Assembly: GCA_036494165.1 (NCBI GenBank)
Contig: DASXOQ010000084.1
Span: 40,859-104,858, forward strand
DNA length: 64,000 nucleotides
Direction: 5' to 3'
Source of the DNA: Steroidobacteraceae bacterium
GTDB lineage: Bacteria > Pseudomonadota > Gammaproteobacteria > Steroidobacterales > Steroidobacteraceae
Notes under the pieces: model-generated
What the model was told of the DNA's origin: nothing
The model's database searches: none
What the model saw: the letters and a program-made list of their open reading frames with translations, nothing else
Position numbers and translations under genes: made by a program
Shown here: piece by piece, positions 17,307 through 33,199 of the stretch
Numbering within the stretch: position 1 is the first letter of the stretch
How the letters are laid out: each line of letters begins with the position of its first letter

Positions 17307-18494
17307 ATGGACAAGCTAAGAGCACTTACGATCACCGCGGCCGCAGTGATTGGCGCGCTGACGTCCGCGGGTTCAGCCAGCGCTGCCGGCCCGACCGCCG
17401 ACCAGGCGACGCGCATGTACAACCGCATCGCCGGCGTGCCGCCAACCGCGCAGCAGCTGTCGAACATGATGGCGAGTTCGGATCTGGTCAACGCGGCGCT
17501 GATCGCCACCCAGGACCCCTCGTTCTACAACAACACCATCCGCAACATGGCGACGCCATGGACCAATCGCGATCAGACGGTGTTCGCTCCCTTGAACGAC
17601 TACACCGCCACGGTGGTCGGGATGGTGCGCGATGACGTTCCTTTCAATACGCTCCTGAGCGCCGACCTGGTCTACGTCGCCGACTCCGCAGCCGGGGTAC
17701 CGGCCTACTCACCGTCGAACAACGCCATGTACGACGCCATGGATTCAAAGAACGTCGATCTGAAGGCGCACCTGCAGTCGGCCACCCAGTCGACCCTGCA
17801 GGGTATCCCTTCGACGGCAACCGCCGGTGTCATGACCACGCGTGGCGCAGCGAGTGCTTTCTTCATCAACGGCACCAACCGGGCGATGTTCCGCTTCACC
17901 ATGCTGAATCATCTGTGCCATGACCTGCAGACCGTGATGGACATTACCCGACCGCCCGATCGCATCCGCCAGGACGTGACGCGCAGCCCCGGCGGCGTGT
18001 CCACGCTCTTCTTGAACAACTGCATCGGCTGCCACAGCGGCATGGATCCGATGGCGCAGGCCTTCGCCTATTACAATTTCAGCGCCACCGACGCGACCAT
18101 GACCGACACCACCGGCCAGATCGTGTACACCGCCGGCCAGACGCAGGCGAAATACCACATCAACAACCTGAACTTCCCGCAAGGGTTCAACACGCCGGAT
18201 GATGCGTGGGAGAACCGCTGGCGCGCCGGCCCCAACCAGCTGTTGGGCTGGAGCACCAACCCCAGCTACAAGGGCAGCGGCAATGGCGCGAAATCCCTCG
18301 GCCAGGAGCTCGAGAACTCCGAGGCGTTCGCCTCCTGCCAGGTCACCCGCGTGTTCAAACAAGTCTGCCTGCGTTCTCCGGCAAGCGCGCAGGACATTTC
18401 TCAAGTTGCCACCATGACCCAGTCGTTCCAGTCAGGCTATGTGCTGCGGCAGGTGTTTGCGCAAAGCGCGGCCTACTGTGCGACGAGTCTGTAG
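17307..18494 (+). CDS. Secreted protein with one CxxCH motif (Planctomycete-cytochrome PSCyt3/DUF1588-like block)
   Basis: GGAG lies 6 nt upstream of the ATG at 17307 (alternatives: GTG 17289, ATG 17295). Signal peptide MDKLRALTITAAAVIGALTSAGSASA. Motif FLNNCIGCHSGMDPMAQAF. Confidence 0.7.
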   Translation: MDKLRALTITAAAVIGALTSAGSASAAGPTADQATRMYNRIAGVPPTAQQLSNMMASSDLVNAALIATQDPSFYNNTIRNMATPWTNRDQTVFAPLNDYTATVVGMVRDDVPFNTLLSADLVYVADSAAGVPAYSPSNNAMYDAMDSKNVDLKAHLQSATQSTLQGIPSTATAGVMTTRGAASAFFINGTNRAMFRFTMLNHLCHDLQTVMDITRPPDRIRQDVTRSPGGVSTLFLNNCIGCHSGMDPMAQAFAYYNFSATDATMTDTTGQIVYTAGQTQAKYHINNLNFPQGFNTPDDAWENRWRAGPNQLLGWSTNPSYKGSGNGAKSLGQELENSEAFASCQVTRVFKQVCLRSPASAQDISQVATMTQSFQSGYVLRQVFAQSAAYCATSL

Positions 18495-18504
18495 GAACGT
18501 GACC

Positions 18505-21036
18505 ATGAACATGCACACGAGCACTAGACACATGATGAGCCACATGAAGTTCTCACGGATCGGAGCGCTGCTCGCGCTGGCAAGCACCCTGGTACTCAGC
18601 GCCTGCGGCGGCGGCGGTGCCCCCACCACCGCCAACGAAGTTGCCGGTACCGGCACCAGTTCGGTGAACGCTTACACCGGACCCGCGCCTGCCACGGCGG
18701 ACGTGCAGGCCTTCGAGGTGAACCTCTGGCAGAACATCCGCGGCCAGAACCGCTGCGGCGCCTGCCACAACGCGACCACCCCGGCGCAGATGCCGAACTT
18801 CGCGCGCTCGGACGATGTGAACCTTGCCTATGCGCAGGCGAACACCGTGGTCAACCTTCAGAATCCCTCGACCTCGTTGATGGTCACCAAGGTGGCCGGC
18901 GGTCACAACTGCTGGCTTGCGGACCCGTCTGCCTGCGGTCAGATCTTGACCACTTGGATCAGCAATTGGGCGGGCGCCACCGGCACCTCGTCCGCCACCA
19001 CGGTGCAGCTGGTCGCTCCGGTCGACACAACCGTCGGCCAGAGCCTGAACTTCCCGAACGACAACGGTGCGCTGTACGGCAGCACTATATATACGGTCAC
19101 CAGCCATTACTGCGTCGGCTGCCATACGCCCTCGTCGGCCACCGCGCAGTCGCCGTACTTCGCATCGCCCGACCTTCCCAACGCCTATCAGGCGGCCATC
19201 CCCAAGATCGATTTGTCGGGATGCGTGCCCTTCAATGCGACCACCTGCGGCACCAACTCGCGCTTCTATCAGCGCCTGCTCACCGACATGCATAACTGCT
19301 GGGACAACTGCGCGCAGGATGCCGCCATCATGCTCACGCAGATCCAGAATTTCGCCAAGGCGCTGACGCCCACCAACATCGACCCGTCGCTGGTGGTGAG
19401 CCGCCAGCTGCCCTTGAGCCAGGGCACCATCGCTTCGGGTGCGAACCGCTACGACGCGGATACGATCGCCAAGTACGAATTTCAGGAGATCGTCAATAAC
19501 ACCGCATTCGACACCAGCGGCGTCGACCCGTCTGCCGACCTGACTTTGAGCGGTTCAGTGACCCTTGCGGGAGGCTGGGGCGTGAACATCGGCGCCGGCG
19601 GCAAGCTGCAGGCCACCACCGCCGCGTCCGCCAAGATTTTCAACCAGATCCAGGCCACGGGCGAGTTCTCGGTCGAGGCATGGGTGGCCCCGGCCTTGGT
19701 CGCAGCCGACAAGTCCTACATGGTGAGCTACTCGGGCGGCGACACCACCCGAAACTTCACCCTGGGACAGACCAACCAGAACTACGACTTCATGGCGCGC
19801 AGCTCGGGCTCCGACCTGAACGGCATGCCGCAGCTCGCGACGCCCACCGCGGATACCGTCCTGCAGGCCTCGCTGCAGCACGTGGTGCTCACCTACGATC
19901 CGATCAACGGCCGCCAGATCTACGTCAATGGCGTCAACACCGGCGTCATGGACCCGCAGAAGGGCGGCACGATCTCCAACTGGGACAGCACCTTCGCGCT
20001 GGTCCTGGGCAACGAGGTATCGAGCGACCGCTCCTGGCAGGGCCTCATCAAGTTCGTGGCCATCCATAGCCGCGCGCTCACCCAGGCCCAGATCACGCAG
20101 AACTTCAACGCGGGCGTCGGCCAGCGCTACTACGTGCTGTTCGATGTCTCGGCGGTGACCGGCGTGAGCAAGGGCTACGTGATGTTCACCGTCAGCCAGT
20201 ACGACAGCTACAGCTACCTGTTCGACCAGCCGACCTTCGTATCGCTCGATTCGACGGTCACCTCGTCGAATCTGCCGAGCATCGCCATCAAGGGCATCCG
20301 CATCGGCTTGAACGGGCTGATTCCGCAGGTCGGCCAGGCCTACATCCCGCTCAACACCACCGTCACTGGGGCGAACTACAAGCCAACCGGCGAGGTGCTG
20401 TCGAACATCGGCACGGTCATCGGGCTGCAGAATGCCTCGACCGACACCTTCTTCCTGTCATTCGACCAGCTCGGCAGCCACACCCACGTGGTCACTGATC
20501 CGGTGCCGGCGCCTGAGGCACCGGTGGCTGGACCGACCGTGGCAGACGTCGGTGTGCGTTCCTTCGCCGAGGTGAATGCCACGCTCTCCATGCTGACGGG
20601 CGTGCCCAGCACCAACTCCGCGGTGAGCGCCACCTATCAAGCCGTGCAGCAGCAGCTGCCGGCGACCAACACCCTGGAGAGCTTCTCCTCCTCCAACCAG
20701 GTGGGTGTGGCGCAGCTGGCGATCCAGTACTGCAACGTGTCGGTCCAGAATGCGAGCTACGCCGCGGTCATGATGCCGGGAGTCACGGTGAGCGCCTCGA
20801 CACTGTCGAGTCCGGCGGGCGTCAGCCAGGTGACCAGTGCGCTCGCGGCACGGGTCTTGGGCAGCAGCCAGCAGGTGAACGTCCCTGCCGCTTCGACCAT
20901 CACCAACGAGCTCGGCACCCTGATCAACACTCTGTGCACGACCCAGGCCTGCTCGGGCAATCTGGCGCGCACCCAGTCGGTCATTGCCGCCGCGTGCGCC
21001 GCCAGTTTCGGCAGCGCCAACATGTTGATCAAGTAA
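18505..21036 (+). CDS. Lipoprotein with two CxxCH modules and a LamG (laminin-G/concanavalin-like) domain
   Basis: AGGAA RBS before the ATG at 18505. Lipobox LVLSAC. Haem motifs RCGACHN and YCVGCHT, each followed by an HNCW...C block. LamG-like region ...SLQHVVLTYDPINGRQIYVNGV...WQGLIKFVAIHSRALTQAQI. Confidence 0.75.
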   Translation: MNMHTSTRHMMSHMKFSRIGALLALASTLVLSACGGGGAPTTANEVAGTGTSSVNAYTGPAPATADVQAFEVNLWQNIRGQNRCGACHNATTPAQMPNFARSDDVNLAYAQANTVVNLQNPSTSLMVTKVAGGHNCWLADPSACGQILTTWISNWAGATGTSSATTVQLVAPVDTTVGQSLNFPNDNGALYGSTIYTVTSHYCVGCHTPSSATAQSPYFASPDLPNAYQAAIPKIDLSGCVPFNATTCGTNSRFYQRLLTDMHNCWDNCAQDAAIMLTQIQNFAKALTPTNIDPSLVVSRQLPLSQGTIASGANRYDADTIAKYEFQEIVNNTAFDTSGVDPSADLTLSGSVTLAGGWGVNIGAGGKLQATTAASAKIFNQIQATGEFSVEAWVAPALVAADKSYMVSYSGGDTTRNFTLGQTNQNYDFMARSSGSDLNGMPQLATPTADTVLQASLQHVVLTYDPINGRQIYVNGVNTGVMDPQKGGTISNWDSTFALVLGNEVSSDRSWQGLIKFVAIHSRALTQAQITQNFNAGVGQRYYVLFDVSAVTGVSKGYVMFTVSQYDSYSYLFDQPTFVSLDSTVTSSNLPSIAIKGIRIGLNGLIPQVGQAYIPLNTTVTGANYKPTGEVLSNIGTVIGLQNASTDTFFLSFDQLGSHTHVVTDPVPAPEAPVAGPTVADVGVRSFAEVNATLSMLTGVPSTNSAVSATYQAVQQQLPATNTLESFSSSNQVGVAQLAIQYCNVSVQNASYAAVMMPGVTVSASTLSSPAGVSQVTSALAARVLGSSQQVNVPAASTITNELGTLINTLCTTQACSGNLARTQSVIAAACAASFGSANMLIK

Positions 21037-21061
21037 GCAAAAGGATATTGAAGAGGTTCTT

Positions 21062-22678
21062 ATGCGTAGAAAGAAGCCAGCACCGGGACTGAACCAGCCC
21101 TTGTACCACTTGGGTCACTCGAAGCCGCGCTCTCGCCGGGAATTTCTCGCGCAGGGTTTTCTCACCGGTGCCGCCACCGTGGTGGGCCCCTCGCTCCTGG
21201 GCATGCTGGGCGTACCGAAGGAGGCCCAGGCTGCCTTGGCGCCCGACCTTCAGGCCCTGCTGCCGGGGTGTCAGATCACTACCGGTGCGGGCAAGATCCC
21301 CTTCATCTGCTTCGACCTCGCGGGAGGCGGCAATATCGCCGGCTCCAACGTGTTGGTCGGCGGTCCCAAGGGCCAGCTCGATTTTCTTTCGGTCGCGGGC
21401 TACAACAAGCTTGGACTGCCGGGCACCATGGTGCCGAACTCGAGCACCACCGGCAGCTTCGTCGATTCGAGCCTGGGCCTCCGCTACCATTCCGACAGCG
21501 CTCATCTTCGCGGCATCAAGGCACGCGCCAGCGCCGCCGCCATGGCCGGCACCAACGGCACCGTGATACCGGCGCTGTCGCAGAACGACACCAACACCAA
21601 CCCGCACAACCCGATGTACGCCATCTATCAGTATGGCGCGCGCGGTGCGCTGCTCAATCTGATCGGCTCCGACAACTCGCAGTCGGGCGGCAATTCCATG
21701 GCACCGCCCTCGATGGTGATCGCCGAGGCGATGCCCACCAAGGTGTCGAGTCCGGCGGACACCGCCGGTCTCGTCAGCACCGGACAGTTGGGCACGCTTC
21801 TGCCGAATGCCTCCGATGTAACCAGCGTCATGGAATCGATGAAGCGCATCAGCGACGCCAAGTACGGCAAGGTCACTGCCTACACCAGCGCCACCATGAA
21901 CTCAGCGGCGCTAGGCACCACCGGCATCGAGGCCTGCAGCTTCACAAAGGCGGCCTACATCGTCGACAAGTACAACGACCCGGGTTCGGTGAACCCGGCG
22001 CTCGATCCCAAGATCGTCGGTCCGAGCGGCATCTTCAGCACCGCGGAGTTCCAGAGCAACTCGGACTATCAGACCACCGCCTCCATCATGAAGCTGGTCA
22101 TCGACGGCAATGCGGCCGCCGGCACCATCGAGATGGGCGGCTTCGACTATCACACCGGCGATCGCTCCACGGGTGAAGCGAGGGACTTGAACCTCGGCAA
22201 CTGCATCGGCGCGGTGCTCGAGTACGCCAAGCGCGCCGGCAAACCGGTGATGATCTATGTGTTCACCGACGGTTCGCTTGCTTCCAGCGGCATGATCGAC
22301 AGCTCGGCCGGCGGGCGGGGCAAGGGCGTGTGGACCGCGGACAACCAAAGCGTGGCCGCCACCTACTTCTTGGTTTACAACCCGGCGGGCAAGGCGCAGA
22401 CGGCCATGAGCGGCATCGAGTCGAGCTTGCAGATCGGCAATTTCAACCCCGACGGTTCGCTCAACACCAACGGCAGCCCGGCGGGCAACAACGTGTTCAA
22501 CCTGGTGCAGATGGTGGTGCTCAACTACATCGCCCTGCACGAGGCGGATGCGGCGGATGTCTTCGCCAATCTCTATCCGCCGGCCATGCAGAACAACACG
22601 CTCGGCACCGGCTCCGCGCTTCAGTCGCTGATCGCCTGGCAGCCGCTCGCGGGCCTGGTGAACGGCAAGGTAATCTGA
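21062..22678 (+). CDS. Tat-exported DUF1501/DUF1552-like (alkaline-phosphatase/sulfatase-fold?) protein
   Basis: Twin-arginine motif SRREFLAQGFLTGAA. The block IEMGGFDYHTGD resembles the GG(W/F)DTH motif of DUF1501. It follows the CxxCH proteins, as in Planctomycete PSCyt/DUF1501 pairs. Confidence 0.6.
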   Translation: MRRKKPAPGLNQPLYHLGHSKPRSRREFLAQGFLTGAATVVGPSLLGMLGVPKEAQAALAPDLQALLPGCQITTGAGKIPFICFDLAGGGNIAGSNVLVGGPKGQLDFLSVAGYNKLGLPGTMVPNSSTTGSFVDSSLGLRYHSDSAHLRGIKARASAAAMAGTNGTVIPALSQNDTNTNPHNPMYAIYQYGARGALLNLIGSDNSQSGGNSMAPPSMVIAEAMPTKVSSPADTAGLVSTGQLGTLLPNASDVTSVMESMKRISDAKYGKVTAYTSATMNSAALGTTGIEACSFTKAAYIVDKYNDPGSVNPALDPKIVGPSGIFSTAEFQSNSDYQTTASIMKLVIDGNAAAGTIEMGGFDYHTGDRSTGEARDLNLGNCIGAVLEYAKRAGKPVMIYVFTDGSLASSGMIDSSAGGRGKGVWTADNQSVAATYFLVYNPAGKAQTAMSGIESSLQIGNFNPDGSLNTNGSPAGNNVFNLVQMVVLNYIALHEADAADVFANLYPPAMQNNTLGTGSALQSLIAWQPLAGLVNGKVI

Positions 22679-22684
22679 GCACGA

Positions 22685-22712
22685 CGCGCGTGCGACCTAA
22701 GTCGCACGCGCG
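22685..22712 (+). terminator. Intrinsic terminator hairpin after the DUF1501-like gene
   Basis: Perfect 12-bp stem cgcgcgtgcgac / gtcgcacgcgcg with a ctaa loop, starting 7 nt after the stop and followed by the T-rich attgtcttct. Confidence 0.7.
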
Positions 22713-22844: not shown

Positions 22845-22874
22845 TTGACACTGCGGCTTGCAGTGTGCGATTTT
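22845..22874 (+). promoter_or_regulatory. Candidate sigma70 promoter for the riboswitch-led operon
   Basis: Perfect -35 TTGACA (22845-22850), an 18-nt spacer, then an extended -10 TGcGATTTT (22866-22874). The predicted TSS at about 22881-22883 lies immediately 5' of the aptamer. Confidence 0.4.
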
Positions 22875-22883
22875 GCATAAGTC

Positions 22884-22965
22884 TGATCAGGGCAAACTCG
22901 CCGAAAGGCGAGGGCGCAAAGCTTCCGGTCTACGGGTCTTCCTAGGACAGCGGGGTTACCAGCGT
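22884..22965 (+). promoter_or_regulatory. c-di-GMP-I (GEMM-I) riboswitch aptamer
   Basis: GAUCAGGGCAAAC UCGCC GAAA GGCGA GGGCGCAAAGC UUCC GGUCUACGG GUCUU CCUAGGAC AGCGGGGUUACCAGC. All conserved blocks of the class-I aptamer, as recalled from V. cholerae Vc2, occur in the same order: AGGGCAAAC, a GAAA-capped first hairpin, GCGCAAAGC, a second hairpin, and AGCGGGGUUACC. Confidence 0.85.
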
Positions 22966-22977
22966 GATTGATGCATT

Positions 22978-23010
22978 GCTGCGCACCGGCGTCAGCGTAC
23001 GTTTCTTGGG
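22978..23010 (+). terminator. Candidate riboswitch expression-platform hairpin / attenuator
   Basis: Stem gctgcgc (22978-84) / gcgtcagc (22989-96): 7 bp with one bulge and an accg loop. The U-rich gtacgTTTCTTgggTTCTT follows. The 3' arm can alternatively pair with gacgcc (23017-22) next to the start codon. Confidence 0.4.
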
Positions 23011-23022
23011 TTCTTAGACGCC

Positions 23023-23538
23023 GTGAGACATCCCGGTATGCGTGGCCTATTGCTGACTGGCGTCATTTTGACGGGCGCGCTGTGCGCGACCGGCAGCGCC
23101 GCGCCGCCGTCGCTGCTTGGCAAGGAGGCGCCCGACTTCGCGCTGCGCGCCATGGACGGTCACAACGTTCGCCTCTCGGAATATCGCGGCGAAGTGGTGC
23201 TGGTGAATTTCTGGGCGCGTTGGGAAGGTGACTCGCGCCAGCAGATGCAGGCGCTCGATCACATCAACGTCACCTATCAGCGCGCCGGACTCGTGGTGCT
23301 CGGCATCTCGGTCGATGAGGATCAGCGTCGCGCACGCGAGTTCGCGACATCGATGGCGGTCTCCTATCCCATCCTGTTCGACACGGGAGCCACCATCGGC
23401 AAGGATTATCTGCTGCAAAAGATGCCGGTCACTTTACTGATCGACCGTTCGGGCGTCGTGCGCTATTCGGTTGTCGGCTACAAGCGCGGCGACGAGCAGG
23501 CTTATTTGGAACAAATCCGCGCACTGCTGCGGGAATAA
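23023..23538 (+). CDS. Secreted thioredoxin-fold (TlpA-like) protein lacking the CxxC active site
   Basis: Clear paralogue of 12391..12897, with VVLVNFWARWEGDSRQQM in place of VVMVNFWATWCGPCQQEM and a shared C-terminus (...GYKRGDEQAYLEQIRALLRE vs ...GYKPGDENEYQDRIRQLIRE). Signal peptide present. Start is GTG 23023 or ATG 23038. Confidence 0.8.
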   Translation: MRHPGMRGLLLTGVILTGALCATGSAAPPSLLGKEAPDFALRAMDGHNVRLSEYRGEVVLVNFWARWEGDSRQQMQALDHINVTYQRAGLVVLGISVDEDQRRAREFATSMAVSYPILFDTGATIGKDYLLQKMPVTLLIDRSGVVRYSVVGYKRGDEQAYLEQIRALLRE

Positions 23539-23552
23539 ACGTAGGTCTTTGT

Positions 23553-24206
23553 ATGAATTTCAATGTTCGAGTGACCGTTCTTCTTCTCAGCGCCGTGTTT
23601 GGGCTGAGTGCCGCCGCTCAACAGCCGGCACCGGCCACGCCGCAGACGCCGGCGCCCGCGACGCAGGCCCCGGCCGCTCCCGCCGATGCGCCGCCGCCCG
23701 CGGCGCAGGCCCCAACTGCTGATGCACCACCGCCCGCCGCCGATGCGCCATCCGGAGACACCAAGACGCTCGATCAGGAGGTACAGGGTCTCAAGAAGGA
23801 CGTCGTGGACCTCAACAAGGATCTCTTCGTCCTGCAGGAGGAACTGCTGTTCCCCGCCAACACGCAGGTTGCCGTCTACGTGTCCATGGACGTGGGCGCC
23901 TTCTTCGCGCTCGACTCGGTGCAGGTGAAGATCGACAACAAGGAAGTCAAGAACTACTTGTATACCGCCCGCGAGGCACAGGCGCTGCTGAAGGGCGGCG
24001 TGCAGCAGATTTACCTCGGCAACGTCAAAGTCGGCAAGCACGAGCTGGTGGCGTTTTTCACCGGCAAGGGACCCGCCGAGCGCGACTACAAGCGCGGCGC
24101 CACCATAACTTTCGAGAAAGGCGTGGGGGCCAAGTATCTGGAACTCAAGATCACGGATCGTGTTCCCAAACACCAGCCCGAGTTTTTGATCAAAGATTGG
24201 GAATGA
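23553..24206 (+). CDS. Secreted Pro/Ala-rich + coiled-coil + beta-rich domain protein, function unknown
   Basis: Signal peptide MNFNVRVTVLLLSAVFGLSAAA. PA-rich repeats (ADAPPPAA x2), a short coiled coil (LDQEVQGLKKDVVDLNKDLFVLQEEL), then a beta-rich C-terminal domain. Confidence 0.7.
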   Translation: MNFNVRVTVLLLSAVFGLSAAAQQPAPATPQTPAPATQAPAAPADAPPPAAQAPTADAPPPAADAPSGDTKTLDQEVQGLKKDVVDLNKDLFVLQEELLFPANTQVAVYVSMDVGAFFALDSVQVKIDNKEVKNYLYTAREAQALLKGGVQQIYLGNVKVGKHELVAFFTGKGPAERDYKRGATITFEKGVGAKYLELKITDRVPKHQPEFLIKDWE

Positions 24207-24209
24207 TGC

Positions 24210-26117
24210 GTGGGACGGAAGACTAACAGCCTCAAGCCGCTGCTGTTGGGTGCATTTCTCTGCGCCCTGCCATGGACGTCGCAGGGCGCAAAGTTCGTCA
24301 AGCCCGACCCCAACGGGCTCGCTCCGCACGAGGTTCAGGATCTCGCGTACGGAGATGTGCTCTTCTATTTCTTCGAAGACGACTACTTCGACTCTATCAC
24401 GCGCCTGCTCGCTGCGCAGGAGCTGAAGCGCGTTCCCCATACCGAGGAGGAAGCCGAACTGCTGCTCGGCGGGTTGTACCTATCCTTGGGGGAACACATC
24501 GAGGCGGGACGCATTTTCCAGGAGCTCTTGAATAAGAGCACGACCCAGGCGGTGCGCAACCGCGCCTGGTTCTATCTCGGCAAGGTCTGGTATCAGCGCG
24601 ACTACTTCGACGAGGCCACAAAGGCGCTGCACGAGGTTTCCGACAAGATCGATCCGCGCATCAACGCAGAACGCTACATGCTGCTTGCGCAGATCGACAT
24701 GAAGCAGGGCCGCTATGACGATGCCATCGCGGCCTTGAGCAACTGGCATGGCGCGCCCGATTGGACCGCCTATGCGCAGTTCAATCTAGGCGTCGCGCTG
24801 GTGCGCAAGAACCGGCTGCCGGAAGCCATCACGTATCTGGACCGCGTCGGCCAGATCACCACCAACAGCGAAGAGCTGATGGCCCTTCGTGACAAGGCGA
24901 ATCTTGCGCTCGGCTTCGCCCTGCTGCAGGCGCAGCGCTCTGCCGAGGCACGCCCAATACTCGAGCGGGTGCGCCTCGAGGGACCTTACTCGAGCAAGGC
25001 CCTGCTCGGCGTCGGCTGGGCGTCCGCGGGGCAAGGCGAGTTCAAGCGCGCCCTGGTGCCGTGGCTGGCGCTGCGCAAGCGCAGTCTGCTCGATTCCGCG
25101 GTGCAGGAATCGTTCCTCACGGTGCCCTATGCGTATCTGCAATTGAACGCGACCGGGCAGGCGGCGGAGTACTACAACTCGGCCATCGAATCTTTCGATG
25201 CCGAAATGAAGAACATCGATGACTCCATCGAACAGATCAAGGAGGGCAAGCTCCTCGATCGGCTGCTGAACGACGACAAGAAGGACGCGCTCACCTGGGT
25301 GTGGCAACTGCAGAAGCTGCCGGATGCGCCGGAGTCGCGCTACCTGTATCAGCTGCTCGCCAGCAACGAGTTCCAGGAGGGGCTGAAGAATTACCGCGAA
25401 CTCAATTTCATGAGCCGCAATTTGAACGAACTTCGCGAAAGCGTGTCGGCCTACGATGACATGATCGACACGCGCCAGGAGAAGTATCGCCAGCGCGTGC
25501 CGAAGGCGGATGCGGCGCTGGCTGCCACCGATCTTGACGCCCTCAACCAGAAGCGCGTCGATTTCGAGTCGCGCATCAACGAAATCGAAAAGAACAACGA
25601 CGTGGCGACATTGGGCACGCCGGACGAACAGGCCACCTGGGCGCGCCTCAAGAAGATCGAGGATTTCCTGAACGCGCACCCGGACGATCCGGACCTAGCC
25701 GACATGCGCGAACGGCTGCGGCTGCTCAAGGGCGTCATGTACTGGCGCTTGTCGGAGAGCTTCAAGGCGCGCCTGTGGAACGAGCGGCGCGCGGTGCACG
25801 AGCTCGAGGCCAACATCAAAGAGACGCAGAAGCAGTCGGTGCTGGTGCGCCAGGCGCGCAATACGGTGCCGGCCACTAGCGGCGGATTCAGCGAGAAGAT
25901 CGCCGCGATCCGCGAGCGCATCGACAAGCTTTTGGAAAGGCTCGCCGCGACCTCGGAGAAGCAGAATCGCTACCTGCAGGTGCTCGCCATACGCGAGCTC
26001 AAGGGCCAGCGCGAGCGAATCGAGACTTATCAGATTCAGGCGCGCTACGAGCTGGCCGCCATCTACGACCGCGCTTCGGATCAGGCCGATAAGCCCAAGC
26101 CGAAGGTGAACCCGTGA
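24210..26117 (+). CDS. Secreted TPR protein with long C-terminal coiled coil
   Basis: GTG start 3 nt after the upstream stop. Signal peptide, an N-terminal TPR-like half, and a coiled-coil-like C-terminal ~300 aa (heptad-rich, E/K/R/L). Confidence 0.75.
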   Translation: MGRKTNSLKPLLLGAFLCALPWTSQGAKFVKPDPNGLAPHEVQDLAYGDVLFYFFEDDYFDSITRLLAAQELKRVPHTEEEAELLLGGLYLSLGEHIEAGRIFQELLNKSTTQAVRNRAWFYLGKVWYQRDYFDEATKALHEVSDKIDPRINAERYMLLAQIDMKQGRYDDAIAALSNWHGAPDWTAYAQFNLGVALVRKNRLPEAITYLDRVGQITTNSEELMALRDKANLALGFALLQAQRSAEARPILERVRLEGPYSSKALLGVGWASAGQGEFKRALVPWLALRKRSLLDSAVQESFLTVPYAYLQLNATGQAAEYYNSAIESFDAEMKNIDDSIEQIKEGKLLDRLLNDDKKDALTWVWQLQKLPDAPESRYLYQLLASNEFQEGLKNYRELNFMSRNLNELRESVSAYDDMIDTRQEKYRQRVPKADAALAATDLDALNQKRVDFESRINEIEKNNDVATLGTPDEQATWARLKKIEDFLNAHPDDPDLADMRERLRLLKGVMYWRLSESFKARLWNERRAVHELEANIKETQKQSVLVRQARNTVPATSGGFSEKIAAIRERIDKLLERLAATSEKQNRYLQVLAIRELKGQRERIETYQIQARYELAAIYDRASDQADKPKPKVNP

Positions 26118-28918
26118 AGCGGCCGCTTCTCGCATCTTTGCTCCTCCTTCCACTGCTTGCGGCCGCCGCGCCGCAGAAGCAGCCGGCCACCATCAAGGAT
26201 CTCGAGAATCAGCAGCCGGCCGACGTCAGCACGGATCCGCCGAAGAACGTCGATGCGGAAAAGACCATGCAGAGCTACAAGCGCTTCCTGGACCTGAACG
26301 CCGGCGATGCTTCGCTGCGCGCCGAAGCCCTGAGGCGCCTGGGCGATCTCAACCTCGAGAGCGGCGAGAAGGAGCGCATCGAGAGAGAGCTCGCCACCAA
26401 CGAGGGACTGCGCGCCAACGAGGCGATCACGCTGTACTCGAAGCTGCTGCAGGCCTATCCGAAATATGAGCGCAACGATTCGGTGCTATACCAGCTCGCA
26501 CGCGCCTATGAACTCAACGCACAGCCTGAAAAAGCCCTCGCCTCGCTCGACCAGCTTGTGGCGCAATACCCGATCAGCCGTTACATCGACGAGGCGCAGT
26601 TTCGCCGCGGCGAAATCCTGTTCTCGCAGAAGGACTACCTCAAGTCGCAGACGGCTTACGAAGCGGTCATCAAGTCAGGCTCGAATTCGCCGTTCTACAA
26701 CCAGAGCCTCTACAAGCACGGCTGGTCGTTGTTCAAGCAGGGCGAGAACGAGAAGAGCCTCGATTCTTTCCAGAGCGTGCTTGACTCGGTGCTCATTTCC
26801 AAGCGCGACCCGAGCAAGATGGTGGACTTGGATTCCTTGAGCCGCCCCAGTCGCGAGCTCGTTGAGGACACCTTCCGGGTGATGTCCATCACCTTCTCTT
26901 ATCTCGAAGGCCCGAAATCGGTGGCCGACTTTGTCAAGCACCACAAGCAGCGCCCCTACTCCTACCTGCTGTACGCGCGCCTCGGCGACTTATACATGGA
27001 GAAGGAACGCTATACGGATGCGGCCGACGCCTACCGCGCGTTCGTGACGCTGGATCGCAACAACGAGAACGCCCCGCTGCTCGAAACGCAGGCGATCGAA
27101 GCCTATGCCAAGGGCGGCTTTCCGCAGCTGGTGCTGCAAGGGAAGAAGGAGTTCGTCGAGAACTACAGCTTCGGCACACCTTACTGGAACGGTCGCGAGC
27201 CGAAGGGCGAGCCTAAGGTCGTGGCGGTGCTCAAGACCAATCTGAAGGATGTGGCGCAGTACTATCACGCGACCGCACAGAAGACCAAGGACGTGGCGGA
27301 TTACCAGGAGGCGGCCAAGTGGTACCGCAGCTACCTGCACTCCTTCCCGGACGACAAGGATTCGGCGGTAACCAACTACCTGCTGGCCGACACGCTGTTC
27401 GAGAGCAAACAGTACGCAGAGGCAGCGCAAGAATACGAAAACACGGCCTACCACTACGGCAATAGCGATAAGGCGGCTGCCGCAGGCTATGCCGCGCTGG
27501 TCGCCTACAGCAAGCAGGAAGAGACCTTGAGCGGCGATGCCAAGGCGCAATTGCATGCCAAGAGCATGGACAGCGCGTTGAAATTCGCGCAGAGCTTCCC
27601 CGCCCATCCCGAGACGCCGCAGGTTCTGACGCGTGCGACCACCGAGCTGTACGCTGCAAAGGACTATTCGCGCGCCATGGGGGCCGCCGAGGCGCTGCTC
27701 GCGAGGCAGCCGCCGGTCGAACCTGACAAGCAGCGCATCGCCTGGACGGTGATCGGCAATTCCAATTTCGACCAGGGTGTGTTCGACAAGGCGGAGAACG
27801 CCTACACCCACGCGCAGGCAGTGATGCCGGCCAACGATCCGGAACGCCCGGTGATCGTCGAACGTCTCGCGGCCTCCATCTACAAGCAGGGTGAGCAGAA
27901 GAGCAAGGCGGGCGACAGCGATGCCGCGGTGAACGACTTCCTGCGAGTCGCGACCCTCGCGCCTGGCTCAAAAGTGCGCGCCAATGCCGACTTCGATGCC
28001 GCGATGCTGCTGGTGAAGGAAAAGAAATGGGATCGGGCCATCGGCGTTTTGGAGAGCTTCCGCAAGAATTTCCCGCAAAGCCCGCTGCAGGCCGATGTCA
28101 CCCGCAATCTTGCGGTGGCCTATTCGGAATCGGGCCGCCCCGGCGAGGCGGCCGGAGAGTTCGAATTGATTGCGGCCTCGCCCAAGGAAACCCCGGAAGT
28201 GCAGCGCGAGGCCACCCTGTCGGCTGCAGACCTGTACGACAAAGCGGGCAATACCGCCAAGTCCAAGACCATGCTCGAAGCGTTCGTGAAGCACTTCCCG
28301 CAACCCTTGAATCCTGCGATGGAAGCGCGCGATCGGCTGAGCAAAATCGCCGCAAAGCAGGGTGACCTGGGCGCGCGTGATACCTGGTTGCGCGACATCA
28401 TCTCCGCCGATCGCACCGCCGGCGCGCAGCGCACCGACCGCAGCCGGAGCCTTGCCGCCCACGCGACGCTCACCCTGGCTGCGCCTGTCCGCGAGGAATT
28501 CAACCGCATCAAACTGGTCATACCGCTGAAGAAATCGCTGGCGGAGAAACGCAAGGCGATGGAGGCCGCGCTCAAGGCCTATGAAGGTGCGGCCGACTAC
28601 CAGGTGGCCGACGTCACTACCGCGGCGACCTTCGAAAGCGCAGAACTCTATCGTCAGCTGGCCAAGGATTTGATCGCCTCGGAGCGGCCGAAGAATCTGA
28701 AGAAGGACGAGTTGGAGCAGTACGACGTGCTGCTCGAAGAGCAGGCATTCCCGTTTGAGGAGAAGGCCATCAAGCTGCACGAGGTGAATACCGCGCGGGT
28801 GAAAGACGGGACGTACGACGAATGGGTGCAGAAGAGCTTTGCGGCGCTCGCTCAGCTCAACCCGGGACGCTATGCGAAGGTGGAAATCGGTGAGCAACAA
28901 GTCGAATCAATCCGCTAG
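26114..28918 (+). CDS. Large secreted TPR-repeat protein (GltD/AgmU-like?)
   Basis: GTGA start/stop overlap with the upstream gene. Signal peptide MKRPLLASLLLLPLLAAAAP. TPR-like repeats run through all 934 aa. Confidence 0.8.
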   Translation: MKRPLLASLLLLPLLAAAAPQKQPATIKDLENQQPADVSTDPPKNVDAEKTMQSYKRFLDLNAGDASLRAEALRRLGDLNLESGEKERIERELATNEGLRANEAITLYSKLLQAYPKYERNDSVLYQLARAYELNAQPEKALASLDQLVAQYPISRYIDEAQFRRGEILFSQKDYLKSQTAYEAVIKSGSNSPFYNQSLYKHGWSLFKQGENEKSLDSFQSVLDSVLISKRDPSKMVDLDSLSRPSRELVEDTFRVMSITFSYLEGPKSVADFVKHHKQRPYSYLLYARLGDLYMEKERYTDAADAYRAFVTLDRNNENAPLLETQAIEAYAKGGFPQLVLQGKKEFVENYSFGTPYWNGREPKGEPKVVAVLKTNLKDVAQYYHATAQKTKDVADYQEAAKWYRSYLHSFPDDKDSAVTNYLLADTLFESKQYAEAAQEYENTAYHYGNSDKAAAAGYAALVAYSKQEETLSGDAKAQLHAKSMDSALKFAQSFPAHPETPQVLTRATTELYAAKDYSRAMGAAEALLARQPPVEPDKQRIAWTVIGNSNFDQGVFDKAENAYTHAQAVMPANDPERPVIVERLAASIYKQGEQKSKAGDSDAAVNDFLRVATLAPGSKVRANADFDAAMLLVKEKKWDRAIGVLESFRKNFPQSPLQADVTRNLAVAYSESGRPGEAAGEFELIAASPKETPEVQREATLSAADLYDKAGNTAKSKTMLEAFVKHFPQPLNPAMEARDRLSKIAAKQGDLGARDTWLRDIISADRTAGAQRTDRSRSLAAHATLTLAAPVREEFNRIKLVIPLKKSLAEKRKAMEAALKAYEGAADYQVADVTTAATFESAELYRQLAKDLIASERPKNLKKDELEQYDVLLEEQAFPFEEKAIKLHEVNTARVKDGTYDEWVQKSFAALAQLNPGRYAKVEIGEQQVESIR

Positions 28919-29615
28919 CGCGCTTGTAAGCGCGGCGCTGCTGGCCCTTCTGGCCGGCTGCGCAAGTGCGCCGCCCAAGGCAAAGCCCGCCCCGGCAGCG
29001 CCAGAATCGCAGCCGGTGCCGACCTCGACCAATGCACCGGCCGCGGCCACCGCAGCGCCTGCAGCCGGCGCTGCCGCCGGCATACCGGCGACAGCGGCAG
29101 CGCCGCAGCTGCCGGTGCCGGATCGCGCGGCGCAGCAGTACAGCCAGGCCCTCCAAATGATGAAGGCTGGACGTAAGACCGACGCGGAGTTGGAATTCAA
29201 ACAGCTGGCGGTGACTTATCCGCAGTTTGCAGGTCCTCAGTTGAATCTGGGGCTGCTGTACTTGAACGATGCGCGCCTGGCCGACGCGGAGGGCGCCTTC
29301 AAGACGGCGCTCTCCATCAATCCTGCCAACCCGGTGGCAGGCGACGAGCTCGGCATCGTTGAGCGGCGACTCGGCAAGTTTGCGGACGCGGAAGCCGCGT
29401 ATCAGCGCGCCATCGAAGCGGACGGCAATTACGCCCCCGCGCACCTGAATCTCGGCGTGCTTTACGATTTATATTTGCTTGAACCGCAAAAGGCGCTCGA
29501 ACAGTTCGAGCGATACATCGAAATCGCCGGCGAGAACAAGCAGGTCGCCGGTTGGGTTATCGAACTTAAGAAGCGAGTCGGTGCCCCGGCCGCGAAAAAG
29601 GAGCAACCCGCATGA
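28890..29615 (+). CDS. TPR lipoprotein
   Basis: Lipobox LLAGC, an Ala/Pro linker, then three to four TPR repeats (QLNLGLLYLNDARLADAEGAFKTALSINP...). Start is GTG 28890 (AAGGTGG RBS) or ATG 28872; both overlap the end of the upstream gene. Confidence 0.75.
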   Translation: MSNKSNQSASALVSAALLALLAGCASAPPKAKPAPAAPESQPVPTSTNAPAAATAAPAAGAAAGIPATAAAPQLPVPDRAAQQYSQALQMMKAGRKTDAELEFKQLAVTYPQFAGPQLNLGLLYLNDARLADAEGAFKTALSINPANPVAGDELGIVERRLGKFADAEAAYQRAIEADGNYAPAHLNLGVLYDLYLLEPQKALEQFERYIEIAGENKQVAGWVIELKKRVGAPAAKKEQPA

Positions 29616-30130
29616 CCTCCACCAAATTCGCGCTCCTCGGTGTTGTATGCTGCACCGCAGCGATCGCCTATGCTCAAGATCCCCCGGCGACCCCGCCCAA
29701 GGATAGCGCTCAAGCGGAGGCCGGAGAGCCTCGGGCGGACACCTCCGCCCGGCCCAGCCCTCAGGCCGAGGCGGGCGAGCCACGAGCCAATACCTCATCG
29801 GCTGCCCCGGCGCAGGCCAAACCCACTCCGCCACCGCCCAAGGCTGCCGCCAAACCCGGCCAAAAGCCCTCCAATGCGGCCGATCACGTCGAATTGTCGA
29901 CCGCGACCGTTACTGGCGACCGCGAGCAGCCCAAGGTCATGTACATCGTGCCCTGGAAGAGGTCGGATATTGGCGATCTCGAGGGTAAGCCTATGAATAG
30001 CTTGGTGGATGAGGTCTTATCCCCGGTCGACCGGGACGTATTCAAGCGCGAAGTGCGCTATTACGACGCCGTGAAATCCGATGCCCCTTCGCCCAGCGGG
30101 GCGGTGCCGCCCAAGCAGGGTGAGAAGTAA
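29612..30130 (+). CDS. Small secreted protein with tandem QAEAGEPRA(D/N)TS repeat and structured C-terminal domain
   Basis: ATGA overlap with the upstream gene and a strong AAGGAG RBS. Signal peptide, then the C-terminal block TGDREQPKVMYIVPWKRSDIGDL. Confidence 0.7.
   Translation: MTSTKFALLGVVCCTAAIAYAQDPPATPPKDSAQAEAGEPRADTSARPSPQAEAGEPRANTSSAAPAQAKPTPPPPKAAAKPGQKPSNAADHVELSTATVTGDREQPKVMYIVPWKRSDIGDLEGKPMNSLVDEVLSPVDRDVFKREVRYYDAVKSDAPSPSGAVPPKQGEK
29711..29796 (+). repeat. Imperfect 51-bp-period direct repeat inside the CDS (two QAEAGEPRA(D/N)TS units)
   Basis: caagcggaggccggagagcctcgggcggacacctc (29711-45) versus caggccgaggcgggcgagccacgagccaatacctc (29762-96). Confidence 0.6.
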
Positions 30131-30203: not shown

Positions 30204-30902
30204 ATGAATTTCATGACGTCCGTGGTTAACTTCTTCAAGGACGGCGGGGTATTTCTCTACCCGCTGGCTTTGATCTTCGTCGTCGGCGTCGCGATCGCCA
30301 TTGAGCGATACGTGTACCTGACGCGCGAAACCATCAGGAACCGCAGCCTGTGGGAATCGCTGGTCCCGGCATTGAGCTCGGGCAACTTCAAGCAGGTCGT
30401 GGGGCTCACGCAGAACTCCAAGGCCTCCATCGCCACCATCCTGAACTACGGCGTCGCTCGGGTCGCGAGCGCTCGGCGCCGCGACGACATCGAGAAGGCG
30501 ATGGACGAGAGCCTGCTCGAGGTCATTCCGCGCATTGAGAAGCGCACCCACTATCTGTCCTCGCTCGCCAACGTGGGCTTGCTCATCGGCCTGCTCGGCA
30601 CCATCACCGGCCTCATCGGCGCGTTCAGCGCGGTTGCGACCGCGAATCCCGCAGAGAAGGCGAGCCTGCTCGCCGCAGCCATTTCAGTCGCGATGAACAA
30701 CACCGCCTCGGGCCTGGCGGTCGCCATCACGCTGCTTCTCTCGCACATGTTCCTCGAGTCGAAGACCACTTCGCTGATCGACAGCCTGGAGATCGCGTCC
30801 GTGAAGTTCTTGAACTCGATCACCGAGCGCAACGAAGCGGCGCCCGCCGCGCCGGCTGCGCCCACGGTGCGTGCCCCAGCGGCGGCCCGCGGCACCATCT
30901 AA
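30204..30902 (+). CDS. MotA/TolQ/ExbB-family proton channel (AglR-like)
   Basis: GGAG RBS. Three TM helices and the conserved C-terminal block LANVGLLIGLLGTITGLIGAF...AISVAMNNTASGLAVAI. Confidence 0.9.
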   Translation: MNFMTSVVNFFKDGGVFLYPLALIFVVGVAIAIERYVYLTRETIRNRSLWESLVPALSSGNFKQVVGLTQNSKASIATILNYGVARVASARRRDDIEKAMDESLLEVIPRIEKRTHYLSSLANVGLLIGLLGTITGLIGAFSAVATANPAEKASLLAAAISVAMNNTASGLAVAITLLLSHMFLESKTTSLIDSLEIASVKFLNSITERNEAAPAAPAAPTVRAPAAARGTI

Positions 30903-30929
30903 AGCAAAGAACGCAAAGACAGCCAACGC

Positions 30930-31436
30930 ATGAAGTCGAAATCACAACGGATGGTCCATCGCAATCACGCCCGTTATCACACGGGCCGTGACGATCTGAA
31001 CATCGTGCCGATGATCGACATGATGGTGATTCTGGTGTTCTTCCTGATCTTCACCGCGGTGTTCTCCAAGACCAATATCCTGCAGCTCAATCTTCCGGCG
31101 AGCGCGACCGCTCCCGTGGACTTGCCGAAGACTTTGCAGCTGGAAGTGATCATCCGTGCGGATGACCTGGTGGTGAACGACAAGAATTCGGGTCCGCTGA
31201 AGGACCTCCCCAACATCGCCACCGGTTACGATCTCGATCACCTGTCGGAGTTCATGCGGCAGATCAAATCGCAGTTTCCGACGATGACCAATGCCACCGT
31301 CTTGCCGTCCGCCAACATCCCGTACGACACGATCGTGCAGGTCATGGACACGGTGCGGGTGTATGAATTGCCGACGCCGCCTTTTTCCAAGGCGGAGCTC
31401 TTCCCTGACATCTCTTTGGGGGATGCGCCCATATGA
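30930..31436 (+). CDS. ExbD/TolR-family protein 1
   Basis: LNIVPMIDMMVILVFFLIF is the single TM helix carrying the conserved Asp; a periplasmic domain follows. Confidence 0.9.
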   Translation: MKSKSQRMVHRNHARYHTGRDDLNIVPMIDMMVILVFFLIFTAVFSKTNILQLNLPASATAPVDLPKTLQLEVIIRADDLVVNDKNSGPLKDLPNIATGYDLDHLSEFMRQIKSQFPTMTNATVLPSANIPYDTIVQVMDTVRVYELPTPPFSKAELFPDISLGDAPI

Positions 31437-31927
31437 CCCCGACCCGCATCAAGCGCCATCGGCAGCGCAAGCACGGCGGCAGCCATTTCGCGCTGGTGCC
31501 TTTCATCGACATGATGACGATCCTGGTGGTGTTCCTTCTGGCGCACACCGCCGATGTGGACATCCTGCCGAACACCAAGAACATCTCCATTCCGCAATCC
31601 CTTTCCGACCGCAAGCCCGATGCGGCCATCGTGGTGATGGTCACCAAGGATCAATTGTTCGTCGACGGGCAGTTGGTGGGCAACCTCAGCGACGTCGTCG
31701 CCGATCAGGGTACGTATTTCGAACCATTGAAGGCGGCCTTGGTTGCGCAGAACCAGCGCCTGCTGGGGCAGCAGGCGCAGAGCGATGCGTCCAAGCGCGA
31801 AGTCACCATCATGGGCGACAAGAGCACGCCCTACAGCGTGCTCAAGAAGATCATGATGAGCTGCGCCCAGGCCGACTACGGCAAGGTCTCATTCGCGGTG
31901 GTGGAACGCGAAAGGGCGGCGAGCTGA
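31433..31927 (+). CDS. ExbD/TolR-family protein 2
   Basis: ATGA overlap with the upstream gene. FALVPFIDMMTILVVFLL is the TM helix with the conserved Asp. Confidence 0.9.
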   Translation: MTPTRIKRHRQRKHGGSHFALVPFIDMMTILVVFLLAHTADVDILPNTKNISIPQSLSDRKPDAAIVVMVTKDQLFVDGQLVGNLSDVVADQGTYFEPLKAALVAQNQRLLGQQAQSDASKREVTIMGDKSTPYSVLKKIMMSCAQADYGKVSFAVVERERAAS

Positions 31928-31928
31928 C

Positions 31929-32848
<920 letters not shown>

Positions 32849-32852
<4 letters not shown>

Positions 32853-33199
32853 ACGTCCAATCTGAAATCGAGTTCTTCAGCGATCTCGGCTTGGTCGACA
32901 AGGCGCGTTTCGTCACGCGCCTGATCTGCGAGATCTGCGATGAGGCGAAGGTTGGCGCGGGCGACGGCAATGAGGCGGCGCGCTGGCGCTTTGCCAACGA
33001 GATGGCCGCGCGCCTGGCGCGCTTCAGCTACCAGATATTGAGCGAGGATCACGGCCGTCCGCAGGACGATGTGGTGATTCGCATGCTGTTGGGGGCCCGC
33101 AGCGACAAGAATGCCGAGCGCATCATGCACAACGCCTACCGGCGCGTGCTCAACGGCTTTGAGAGCTTCGATACCACCGTTCTGATGAACCCGCGCTAG
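32849..33199 (+). CDS. Small cytoplasmic hypothetical protein, last gene of the operon
   Basis: ATGA overlap with the TonB-like gene. 116 aa, no signal peptide or TM helix, no family recognised. Confidence 0.55.

Follow-up and report, generated by a model that had tools for sequence, protein, structure and literature searches.

A predicted class-I c-di-GMP aptamer joined to a conserved leader reading frame upstream of an envelope operon in Steroidobacteraceae

The stretch analysed here, 64,000 nucleotides of contig DASXOQ010000084.1 from a Steroidobacteraceae bacterium (the window, with positions counted from its first letter), carries on its forward strand an RNA element of the class-I cyclic di-GMP (c-di-GMP) riboswitch type in the 5' leader of an operon of 11 open reading frames (ORFs). 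The operon begins with a secreted redoxin gene and continues with a 217-residue secreted protein, three tetratricopeptide repeat (TPR) proteins, one ExbB-type and two ExbD-type proteins and a TonB-like protein, a make-up that resembles the Agl/Glt "core complex" of envelope machines. Between the aptamer and the redoxin gene lies a short leader ORF, whose GUG start codon is fused to the 3' end of the aptamer. The features of the locus are collected in Table 1; loci related to the window are denoted by L numbers.

Table 1. Features of the riboswitch locus in the window, and related loci with an altered aptamer (aa, amino acids; nt, nucleotides)
Feature	Position	Strand	Basis or remark
Intrinsic terminator of the upstream 538-aa gene	22685..22712	+	12-bp stem, 10 G-C pairs, T-rich tail
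Promoter candidate	22845..22874	+	-35 TTGACA 22845-22850, 18-nt spacer, TGc + GATTTT 22866-22874
Aptamer c-di-GMP-I (GEMM-I), assigned from sequence	22882..22964	+	CL00126 64.1 bits; family model R1 106.6 bits
P1 5' strand CUG	22883..22885	+	pairs with CAG 22960-22962
Block AGGGCAAAC	22889-22897	+	read from sequence
G20 equivalent	22891	+	model position 10; invariant G in orthologue alignment
First hairpin	22892..22917	+	2-bp stem, AAA internal loop, 6-bp stem, GAAA tetraloop
Block GCGCAAAGC	22914-22922	+	read from sequence
C44 equivalent of the interhelical pair	C22915	+	Rfam model position
A47 equivalent	22918	+	A in window and 52/52 aligned orthologues
Second hairpin P3	22920..22957	+	tetraloop-receptor-like motif GGUCUACGG ... 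CCUAGGAC; cells 94% paired in orthologues
Block AGCGGGGUUACC	22949-22960	+	read from sequence
G83 equivalent of the interhelical pair	G22950	+	Rfam model position
GGGG in P3 3' strand	22952..22955	+	Shine-Dalgarno-like, 8 nt upstream of leader-ORF start; putative function
A91/C92 equivalents	22958..22959	+	C92 equivalent = C22959, invariant in 52 orthologues
Leader ORF	22964..23017	+	GUG start, 17 sense codons (VIDALLRTGVSVRFLGS), UAG stop 23015-23017
Hairpin GCUGCGC-ACCG-GCG(U)CAGC	22978..22996	+	in minimum-free-energy fold; inside leader ORF
Gene 1, secreted AhpC/TSA redoxin (TlpA/ResA-like thiol-disulfide oxidoreductase)	23038..23538	+	PF00578 E 1e-23; NCBIfam ResA/TlpA-like below cut-off
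Gene 2, 217-aa secreted protein	23553..24206	+	Pro/Ala-rich linker, predicted helix, C-terminal ~147 aa
Genes 3-5, TPR proteins (635, 934, 258 aa as ORFs)	24210..29615	+	Pfam TPR families
Gene 6, 172-aa protein	29612..30130	+	no Pfam, NCBIfam or PDB match
Genes 7-9, one MotA/TolQ/ExbB-type and two ExbD/TolR-type	30204..31927	+	PF01618 once, PF02472 twice
Gene 10, TonB-like with AgmX/PglI-type C-terminal domain	31929..32852	+	NF033768 65.4 bits vs cut-off 40
Gene 11, 116-aa ORF, operon end	32849..33199	+	convergent Na+/H+ exchanger gene follows on - strand
Aptamer absent in related loci	L007, L008, L064, L058, L071, L029, L061		
Aptamer partial in related loci	L077, L041, L079, L067, L040, L045, L074, L022		

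The aptamer and its orthologues

The whole window was scanned against the Rfam 15 covariance models at their curated gathering thresholds. The sole match was to RF03167 (c-di-GMP-I-GGC, clan CL00126), at 22882-22964 on the forward strand; it scores 64.1 bits, above the gathering score of 59, has an E-value of 7.7e-13 and covers model positions 1-80 of 80. The clan filter hides one more CL00126 match that passes its own gathering score, and two in E-value mode; we infer that the hidden match above its gathering score is to RF01051, for which that score is 35. Judged by its sequence, the element is a genuine, canonical, full-length class-I c-di-GMP (GEMM-I) aptamer. The first-pass annotation of this DNA had proposed the same class, on the same strand and in the operon's 5' leader, and the clan match, the orthologues and the family model described below all back that proposal. 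The sequence that it quoted is found as written at 22884-22965, and every conserved block that it listed could be located within 22889-22960. Its expectation of an RF01051 hit was borne out in part, since a clan match above threshold is present on the forward strand, but the top model is RF03167, owing to hairpin length.

Relatives of gene 2 were sought with the 217-aa protein as the only seed and with one genome per species, which yielded 80 loci, nearly all labelled Steroidobacteraceae or unclassified Gammaproteobacteria, and one contig binned as Luteitalea. Six of these lack upstream DNA, and the aptamer counts accordingly rest on 74. The leader was detected by nhmmer in 73 of the 80 loci. 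A family covariance model (R1) was built from 52 aptamers. It detects a single full-length aptamer in each of 59 of the 74 loci and in the window, every time immediately 5' of the redoxin gene, and cut-down remnants in five further loci. The window copy scores 106.6 bits with this model, on par with the best. Standard pairs fill 95.5% of the pair cells in the 52-aptamer alignment, compared with 40-47% once the partners have been shifted by 1-3 columns, and three of the six pairs in the stem of the GAAA hairpin show changes on both sides among the orthologues. The length of P3 differs among lineages, and the aptamers range from 83 to 139 nt. At the upper end stands L006 (9269-9407), whose P3 loop contains about 52 inserted nt that fold into a long additional hairpin; this 139-nt aptamer scores 81 bits with the family model. 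The most distant locus, L069 (9282-9460), shares 55-68% identity for most operon proteins and has a different promoter, and the aptamer is present there.

The architecture of the window copy agrees with the GEMM definition, which comprises 2-bp and 6-bp stems, an AAA internal loop, a GNRA loop, an AAA linker and, if the loop is GAAA, a receptor in the second hairpin (PMC1950547). Its first hairpin reads GC / AAA / CUCGCC-GAAA-GGCGAG / GGC / GC: the 2-bp stem joins GC at 22892-22893 to GC at 22916-22917, and the 6-bp stem CUCGCC/GGCGAG, perfectly paired between 22897-22902 and 22907-22912, closes the GAAA loop at 22903-22906. The AAA linker between the hairpins occupies 22918-22920; its first two A's are present in all 52 aligned orthologues, the third is a U in L032, and L003 has an extra A. 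In the second hairpin, GGUCUACGG...CCUAGGAC differs at two places from the consensus receptor GguCUAAgg...cuAuGac, as read from the sequence alignment alone. For P1, the Rfam alignment pairs 22884 with 22961 and 22885 with 22960, and 97% of the P1 cells are paired in the orthologues.

The pocket bases point in the same direction. G20, A47 and C92 are ligand contacts in this class (PMC4744006, PMC6140456), and G20 and C92 each read one ligand guanine, the latter by a Watson-Crick pair (PMC6140456, PMC4744006). The equivalents in the window, G22891, A22918 and C22959, are the same bases in 52 of 52 aligned orthologues; the role of the A47-equivalent base is intercalation between the two ligand bases. 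Selective binding of c-di-GMP by the window aptamer is predicted from these bases. The aptamer itself is ordinary, and the interesting parts are its expression platform and its target operon.

A leader ORF and the expression platform

The leader ORF opens at GUG 22964-22966, the first G of which is the last nucleotide of the Rfam match, at the 3' end of P1. It opens from the same GUG (UUG in L066) in all 59 leaders analysed, the window included. Throughout the variable part of these leaders frame 0 is free of stops, while frame 1 is stopped in 30 sequences and frame 2 in 19. Because about 63% of shuffled leaders remain open, an open frame across so many lineages is unlikely to arise by chance, an improbability that is inflated by shared ancestry.

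Across the orthologues, the stop of the leader ORF falls at only two landmarks. The first lies 4 nt into the redoxin gene, where AUGCGUAG/A supplies the UAG or UAA, and is reached by the 18-codon form (27 loci) and by 27- and 29-codon forms; this landmark explains why the redoxin gene so often starts with AUG-CGU-AGN/AAN in a GC-rich genome. The second is the UGA in GGUGAGG, 15 nt before the AUG, used by most of the 21-codon form (23 loci). In this form, an overlapping GUG opens a 7-codon frame that also ends in AUGCGUAG, and GGUGAGG lies within a small hairpin (GCGGUGAGG...CCGC) that abuts the AUG and covers the Shine-Dalgarno sequence. In the 18-codon leaders no Shine-Dalgarno sequence precedes the main AUG, an absence that fits a dependence on the upstream ribosome. 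Past codons 1-3 the peptide sequence is not conserved, suggesting that the act of translation matters rather than the product. The redoxin start itself, AUGCGU at 23038, is conserved in the orthologues, with GUG 23023 in frame; the distance of 58 nt to the first gene given in the first-pass annotation is therefore superseded by that conserved AUG.

Natural rearrangements argue that the GUG is a real start. In L040, where the main AUG has become ACG, the frame opened by the GUG continues into the redoxin without a break, and in L060 an intact aptamer leads to GUG-AUG, immediately after which comes a normal signal peptide. Moreover, in all eight lineages with partly deleted aptamers, the retained piece is exactly the 3' end GACAGCGGGGUUACCAGCGUG, that is, GGGG plus GUG. 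Taken together, the comparative evidence suggests that a conserved short ORF is translated between the aptamer and the gene. An alternative start at the AUG in GAUUGAUG (frame +1) was rejected, because that frame contains stops in about half of the leaders. In L069, the frame of a GUG that overlaps the P1 3' strand (CCAGUGAGG) stays open and reaches the redoxin gene in phase.

We consider it probable that the expression platform is translational rather than a terminator, and that it works as an OFF switch coupled through the leader ORF. The start codon of this ORF is placed at the P1 3' end, 8 nt downstream of the GGGG in the P3 3' strand. Binding of c-di-GMP would lock P1 and the junction together with the base of P3 and would bar the 30S subunit from the leader-ORF start, a proposal made because the GGGG lies in P3 and the start codon touches P1, the helices that the ligand locks in this class. 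In the ligand-free state, the weak base of P3 and P1 would open and the leader ORF would be translated. Ribosomes ending this ORF would then permit initiation on the redoxin gene, at AUG 23038 or GUG 23023, either by terminating on or beside the redoxin start or by melting the small hairpin over its ribosome-binding region. An untranslated leader would probably also reduce downstream expression through polarity. The net effect would be that high c-di-GMP lowers expression of the 11-gene envelope operon. Sequence comparison shows what the aptamer is and which pocket bases it has, and that its position, the leader ORF and the placement of the ORF's stop relative to the main start are conserved; that the aptamer binds the ligand, which way regulation runs, that the two reading frames are coupled and that the operon is homologous to the Glt core are what we infer.

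The more composite proposal, that the closing helix of the aptamer, fused to the start of the leader ORF, gates a ribosome relay (through the AUGCGUAG overlap or a GUGA hand-over) to a motor of the Agl/Glt type, we advance more tentatively, as plausible but somewhat short of probable.

Several points weigh against this interpretation. All steps of the favoured model are drawn from sequence and none from experiment. As a Shine-Dalgarno element the GGGG is a weak match, and P3 holds it paired whether or not ligand is bound, so that the sign of regulation is a matter of judgement. In the window, 20 nt separate the stop of the leader ORF from AUG 23038 and 5 nt separate it from GUG 23023, with no AUGCGUAG overlap, and the coupling is less obvious than in most orthologues. 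The hairpin at 22978-22996 and the U-rich stretch could add some termination. With respect to the aptamer, P1 and most of P3 are nearly invariant, with almost no covariation, and say little either way. Unaided thermodynamic folding of the aptamer and of the whole leader did not recover the GEMM fold and was no better than for shuffled sequences (z -0.35 and -0.71), a poor recovery that is usual for the c-di-GMP-I class. The orthologues are close and come from one bacterial family, and shared ancestry inflates the ORF statistics. Loss or truncation of the aptamer has taken place on at least 11 separate branches of a rough tree, indicating that the control is dispensable. Finally, the resemblance of the operon to the Agl/Glt core complex is suggested by gene make-up and one domain model above its cut-off, rather than by a phylogeny.

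The same architecture might operate with the opposite sign, c-di-GMP exposing the leader-ORF start, for example by freeing the P1 3' strand from a GUG hairpin, and turning the operon ON. The GUG of the 18-codon leaders does lie in such a hairpin, GUGAUU-GAUG-AAUCGC, with wobble-compatible changes and a weaker equivalent in the window. In addition, both ON and OFF c-di-GMP-I switches are generally known, and Vc1 responds positively (PMC4744006). We nevertheless regard this sign as unlikely, given that the GGGG and the start codon are part of, or stacked on, the ligand-stabilised helices, and that the ligand has no conserved alternative pairing to release. An alternative closing helix of UGAUCA (22885-22890) with UGAUUG (22965-22970), considered as the ligand-free state, was rejected: the pairing is broken in several orthologues (L011, L055, L060 and L016), and a double compensatory change occurs in only one, L004.

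A transcription-termination riboswitch, in which the ligand would decide whether the hairpin at 22978-22996 and the U-rich stretch stop RNA polymerase, appears less likely still. The hairpin forms in the minimum-free-energy fold, a hairpin persists at this place among the 21-codon leaders despite substitutions on both strands, some 18-codon leaders carry a 5-bp GGCGC/GCGUC stem followed by AUUUUU, and 78 of 322 GEMM RNAs have terminators (PMC1950547). However, a terminator scan from the aptamer to the first gene (22965-23040) called none. The U-tract of the window is interrupted, with GUAC between the stem and the U's, and orthologues of the same group have CUCAA in place of the U's. L016, whose aptamer is intact, lacks the hairpin; the stem lies inside the conserved ORF; and no convincing anti-terminator overlaps P1. 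The hairpin with its U-tract GUACGUUUCUU, put forward in the first-pass annotation, thus does not hold up as a terminator: it was not called, the U-tract is not conserved, and the hairpin belongs to the conserved ORF. These observations are in line with the translational, leader-ORF-coupled model.

Ligand specificity and loss of the aptamer

The remaining alternatives concern the aptamer rather than the platform. One is that it belongs to a variant class, RF03167 ("GGC") or the cyclic GMP-AMP (c-GAMP) class, and binds a ligand other than c-di-GMP. In its favour, RF03167 is the top Rfam model for the window and for the orthologues L016 and L057, which both have a short P3 and score 62-64 bits. 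From a comparison of the two Rfam consensus lines, the name "GGC" would refer to G20, G47 and C92: the base after CGC is G in the RF03167 consensus (CGC-G-AAgC) and A in that of RF01051 (CGC-A-AAgC), and the window has A22918. The RF03167 consensus also has an A before GGC and a G before the C92 equivalent, where the window has the canonical G and A. The distinguishing G is therefore absent, with A in the window and in 52 of 52 orthologues, and because of this A at the A47 equivalent the window is not a member of RF03167 by its defining feature. Seven orthologous leaders match RF01051, six of them at 50-66 bits and the degraded L032 at 36 (gathering score 35), and those at 50-66 bits differ mainly by a longer P3. 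On this sequence evidence, the "GGC" label of the window aptamer reflects its short P3, a model-length effect, and not its binding pocket.

As to the c-GAMP class, an A at position 20 marks c-GAMP switches (GEMM-Ib) and a G marks those for c-di-GMP (PMC6140456); it is ruled out by the G at 22891, which is G in all orthologues. The preference for c-di-GMP over 3'3'-cGAMP proposed in the first-pass annotation agrees with these results, as the pocket bases G22891, A22918 and C22959 are all of the c-di-GMP type and there is no A20. We therefore consider a variant specificity very improbable. The case carries a caution for annotation: through clan competition, automated Rfam labelling assigns short-P3 copies with a canonical A47 to the orphan "GGC" variant, and automated counts of that variant may be inflated, the window, L016 and L057 being cases in point.

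In the loci that have lost the aptamer, the operon is always kept, and so is the promoter, except in L061; L077 and L041 have lost the first hairpin alone. These loci provide natural mutants, with the aptamer deleted and the leader ORF kept, with the leader ORF fused to the gene, or with everything deleted. That the aptamer is a disused, decaying relic and the operon is controlled at the promoter only, as its deletion or truncation in at least 11 lineages with the promoter kept and an invariant promoter palindrome that could bind a regulator might suggest, is the most improbable reading of all, considering the full-length copies in 59 of 74 loci, the conservation of all ligand-contact bases, the stem changes that keep pairing and a window copy scoring with the best (106.6 bits).

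The operon, its promoter and related systems

The 11 ORFs are co-oriented and tightly spaced or overlapping, and a scan for internal terminators found none convincing. Two upstream genes, the leader and the 11 ORFs are syntenic in every locus long enough to show them. The 11-gene operon named in the first-pass annotation thus stands; its description as an ExbB/ExbD/TonB-like TPR operon is right for genes 7-10 and the TPR genes, but gene 1 encodes a redoxin, and the whole is closer to the Agl/Glt core complex than to a generic TonB system. Start and stop codons overlap by 4 nt at four junctions (26114-26117, 29612-29615, 31433-31436 and 32849-32852), and the operon looks translationally coupled throughout.

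Gene 2, whose protein has no Pfam, NCBIfam or PDB match, is represented by at least 7998 homologues in metagenomes, and the protein is 100% identical to one from the genome of an uncultured Steroidobacteraceae gammaproteobacterium. Its C-terminal portion of about 147 aa is near-invariant in 37 homologues of 74-99% overall identity, and its AlphaFold2 model, with a pLDDT of 38, is unusable. The ORF of gene 5 overlaps gene 4 by 80 nt, and the protein probably begins downstream of 28839; the best NCBIfam match of this third TPR protein is a weak one, to GltE, below cut-off. The ExbB homologue is 82-96% identical across loci. The TonB-like protein of gene 10 also matches TIGR01352 (31.1 bits vs 27.1) and, weakly, GltG and GltJ, and has no PDB sequence match.

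Upstream, the strong terminator at 22685-22712 divides the 538-aa gene from the riboswitch transcription unit. The promoter block and the GCATAAG-UCUGAUCA that leads into the aptamer are near-invariant in 73 of the 80 loci, and conservation would place the promoter here and the transcript start at about 22878-22881. This supports the TTGACA candidate of the first-pass annotation, a perfect hexamer just upstream of the aptamer, with a weak -10 element: a simple sigma-70 scan of the window did not call it, the -10 matching at 3 of 6 positions. A sigma-54 reading of TGTGCGATTTTGCA was dropped, since the GG/GC spacing does not fit. Within the near-invariant block, an imperfect 16-bp palindrome, TGTGC-N6-GCATA (22864-22879), overlaps the -10; its half-sites appear CRP/FNR/Clp-like, which makes it a possible operator through which a second layer of control would act. 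Between the -35 and the -10 (22849-22865) lies a perfect inverted repeat, CACTGC-N5-GCAGTG, that only the window has.

Of the two upstream genes (18439-22678), which are syntenic with the operon in every locus, one encodes an 865-aa protein with a Laminin_G_3/ConA-like domain, and the 538-aa product of the other matches no family; a functional link to the operon, as cargo or surface components, is possible. A search of the window for the GG[DE]EF motif revealed no obvious diguanylate cyclase.

If direct control by c-di-GMP is true, it would put the core-complex machine in the surface or biofilm versus motility programme and tie it to the motile/sessile decision outside Myxobacteria. It would also be the first direct regulatory input known for a widespread envelope machine of unknown function, and would offer a handle on that machine, switchable by a change in c-di-GMP or by deletion of the aptamer. 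The leader ORF, reaching from the 3' end of the aptamer to the start codon of the next gene, would be a testable expression platform. The hosts, Steroidobacteraceae, are abundant and mostly uncultured soil bacteria.

Compared with known systems, the aptamer is closest in form to Vc2 of Vibrio cholerae, the type example of RF01051. Both have the two-hairpin fold, the 2+6-bp first hairpin, the AAA loop, the GAAA tetraloop and the AAA linker, together with the receptor-like motif in the second hairpin, the G20, A47, C92 and C44/G83 equivalents and the location in a 5' leader. In contrast to Vc2 and RF01051, the window aptamer has a short P3, a P1 of about 3 bp and the proposed leader-ORF platform abutting P1, and its Steroidobacteraceae host and target operon are unlike the classic GEMM associations. 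RF03167 is similar to the window aptamer in overall length and hairpin sizes, but its A47G change is absent in the window. The c-GAMP riboswitch of Geobacter (Gs1761) shares the fold and the clan, whereas the window has G at the A20 of GEMM-Ib (PMC6140456).

For the platform, the nearest parallel is the B12 riboswitch of Mycobacterium tuberculosis ppe2, which controls an upstream ORF, PPE2 being made by termination-reinitiation (PMC11260477). By analogy, the window would have riboswitch control of a short upstream ORF on which the downstream gene depends. The aptamer class and ligand differ from those of ppe2, and so do the fusion of the ORF start to the closing helix and the stop, which overlaps the main start as AUGCGUAG or sits in the Shine-Dalgarno hairpin; here, the arrangement is read from sequence alone. 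Our literature search found no report of a leader-ORF platform for c-di-GMP riboswitches, and nothing relevant on a c-di-GMP riboswitch tied to ExbB/TonB or AglR/Glt genes.

The operon itself recalls the core complex described by Luciano et al. (2011), in passages that place it, clustered and of unknown function, in several Gammaproteobacteria, Geobacter and Fibrobacter and regard it as the likely forerunner of both the Agl-Glt gliding motor and the Nfs spore-coat machine (PMC3169522). Those passages mention no riboswitch, and the NCBIfam equivalog scores of the window proteins for GltE, GltG and GltJ are far below cut-offs. As far as that description goes (PMC3169522), the likenesses are one TolQ/ExbB and two TolR/ExbD proteins in one cluster (as AglR/AglQ/AglS), a TonB-like protein with an AgmX/PglI C-terminal domain (as GltG/GltJ), three TPR proteins, extra genes without myxobacterial homologues and a gammaproteobacterial host. 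To this set, as those passages give it, the window cluster adds a leading redoxin gene and the highly conserved 217-aa protein.

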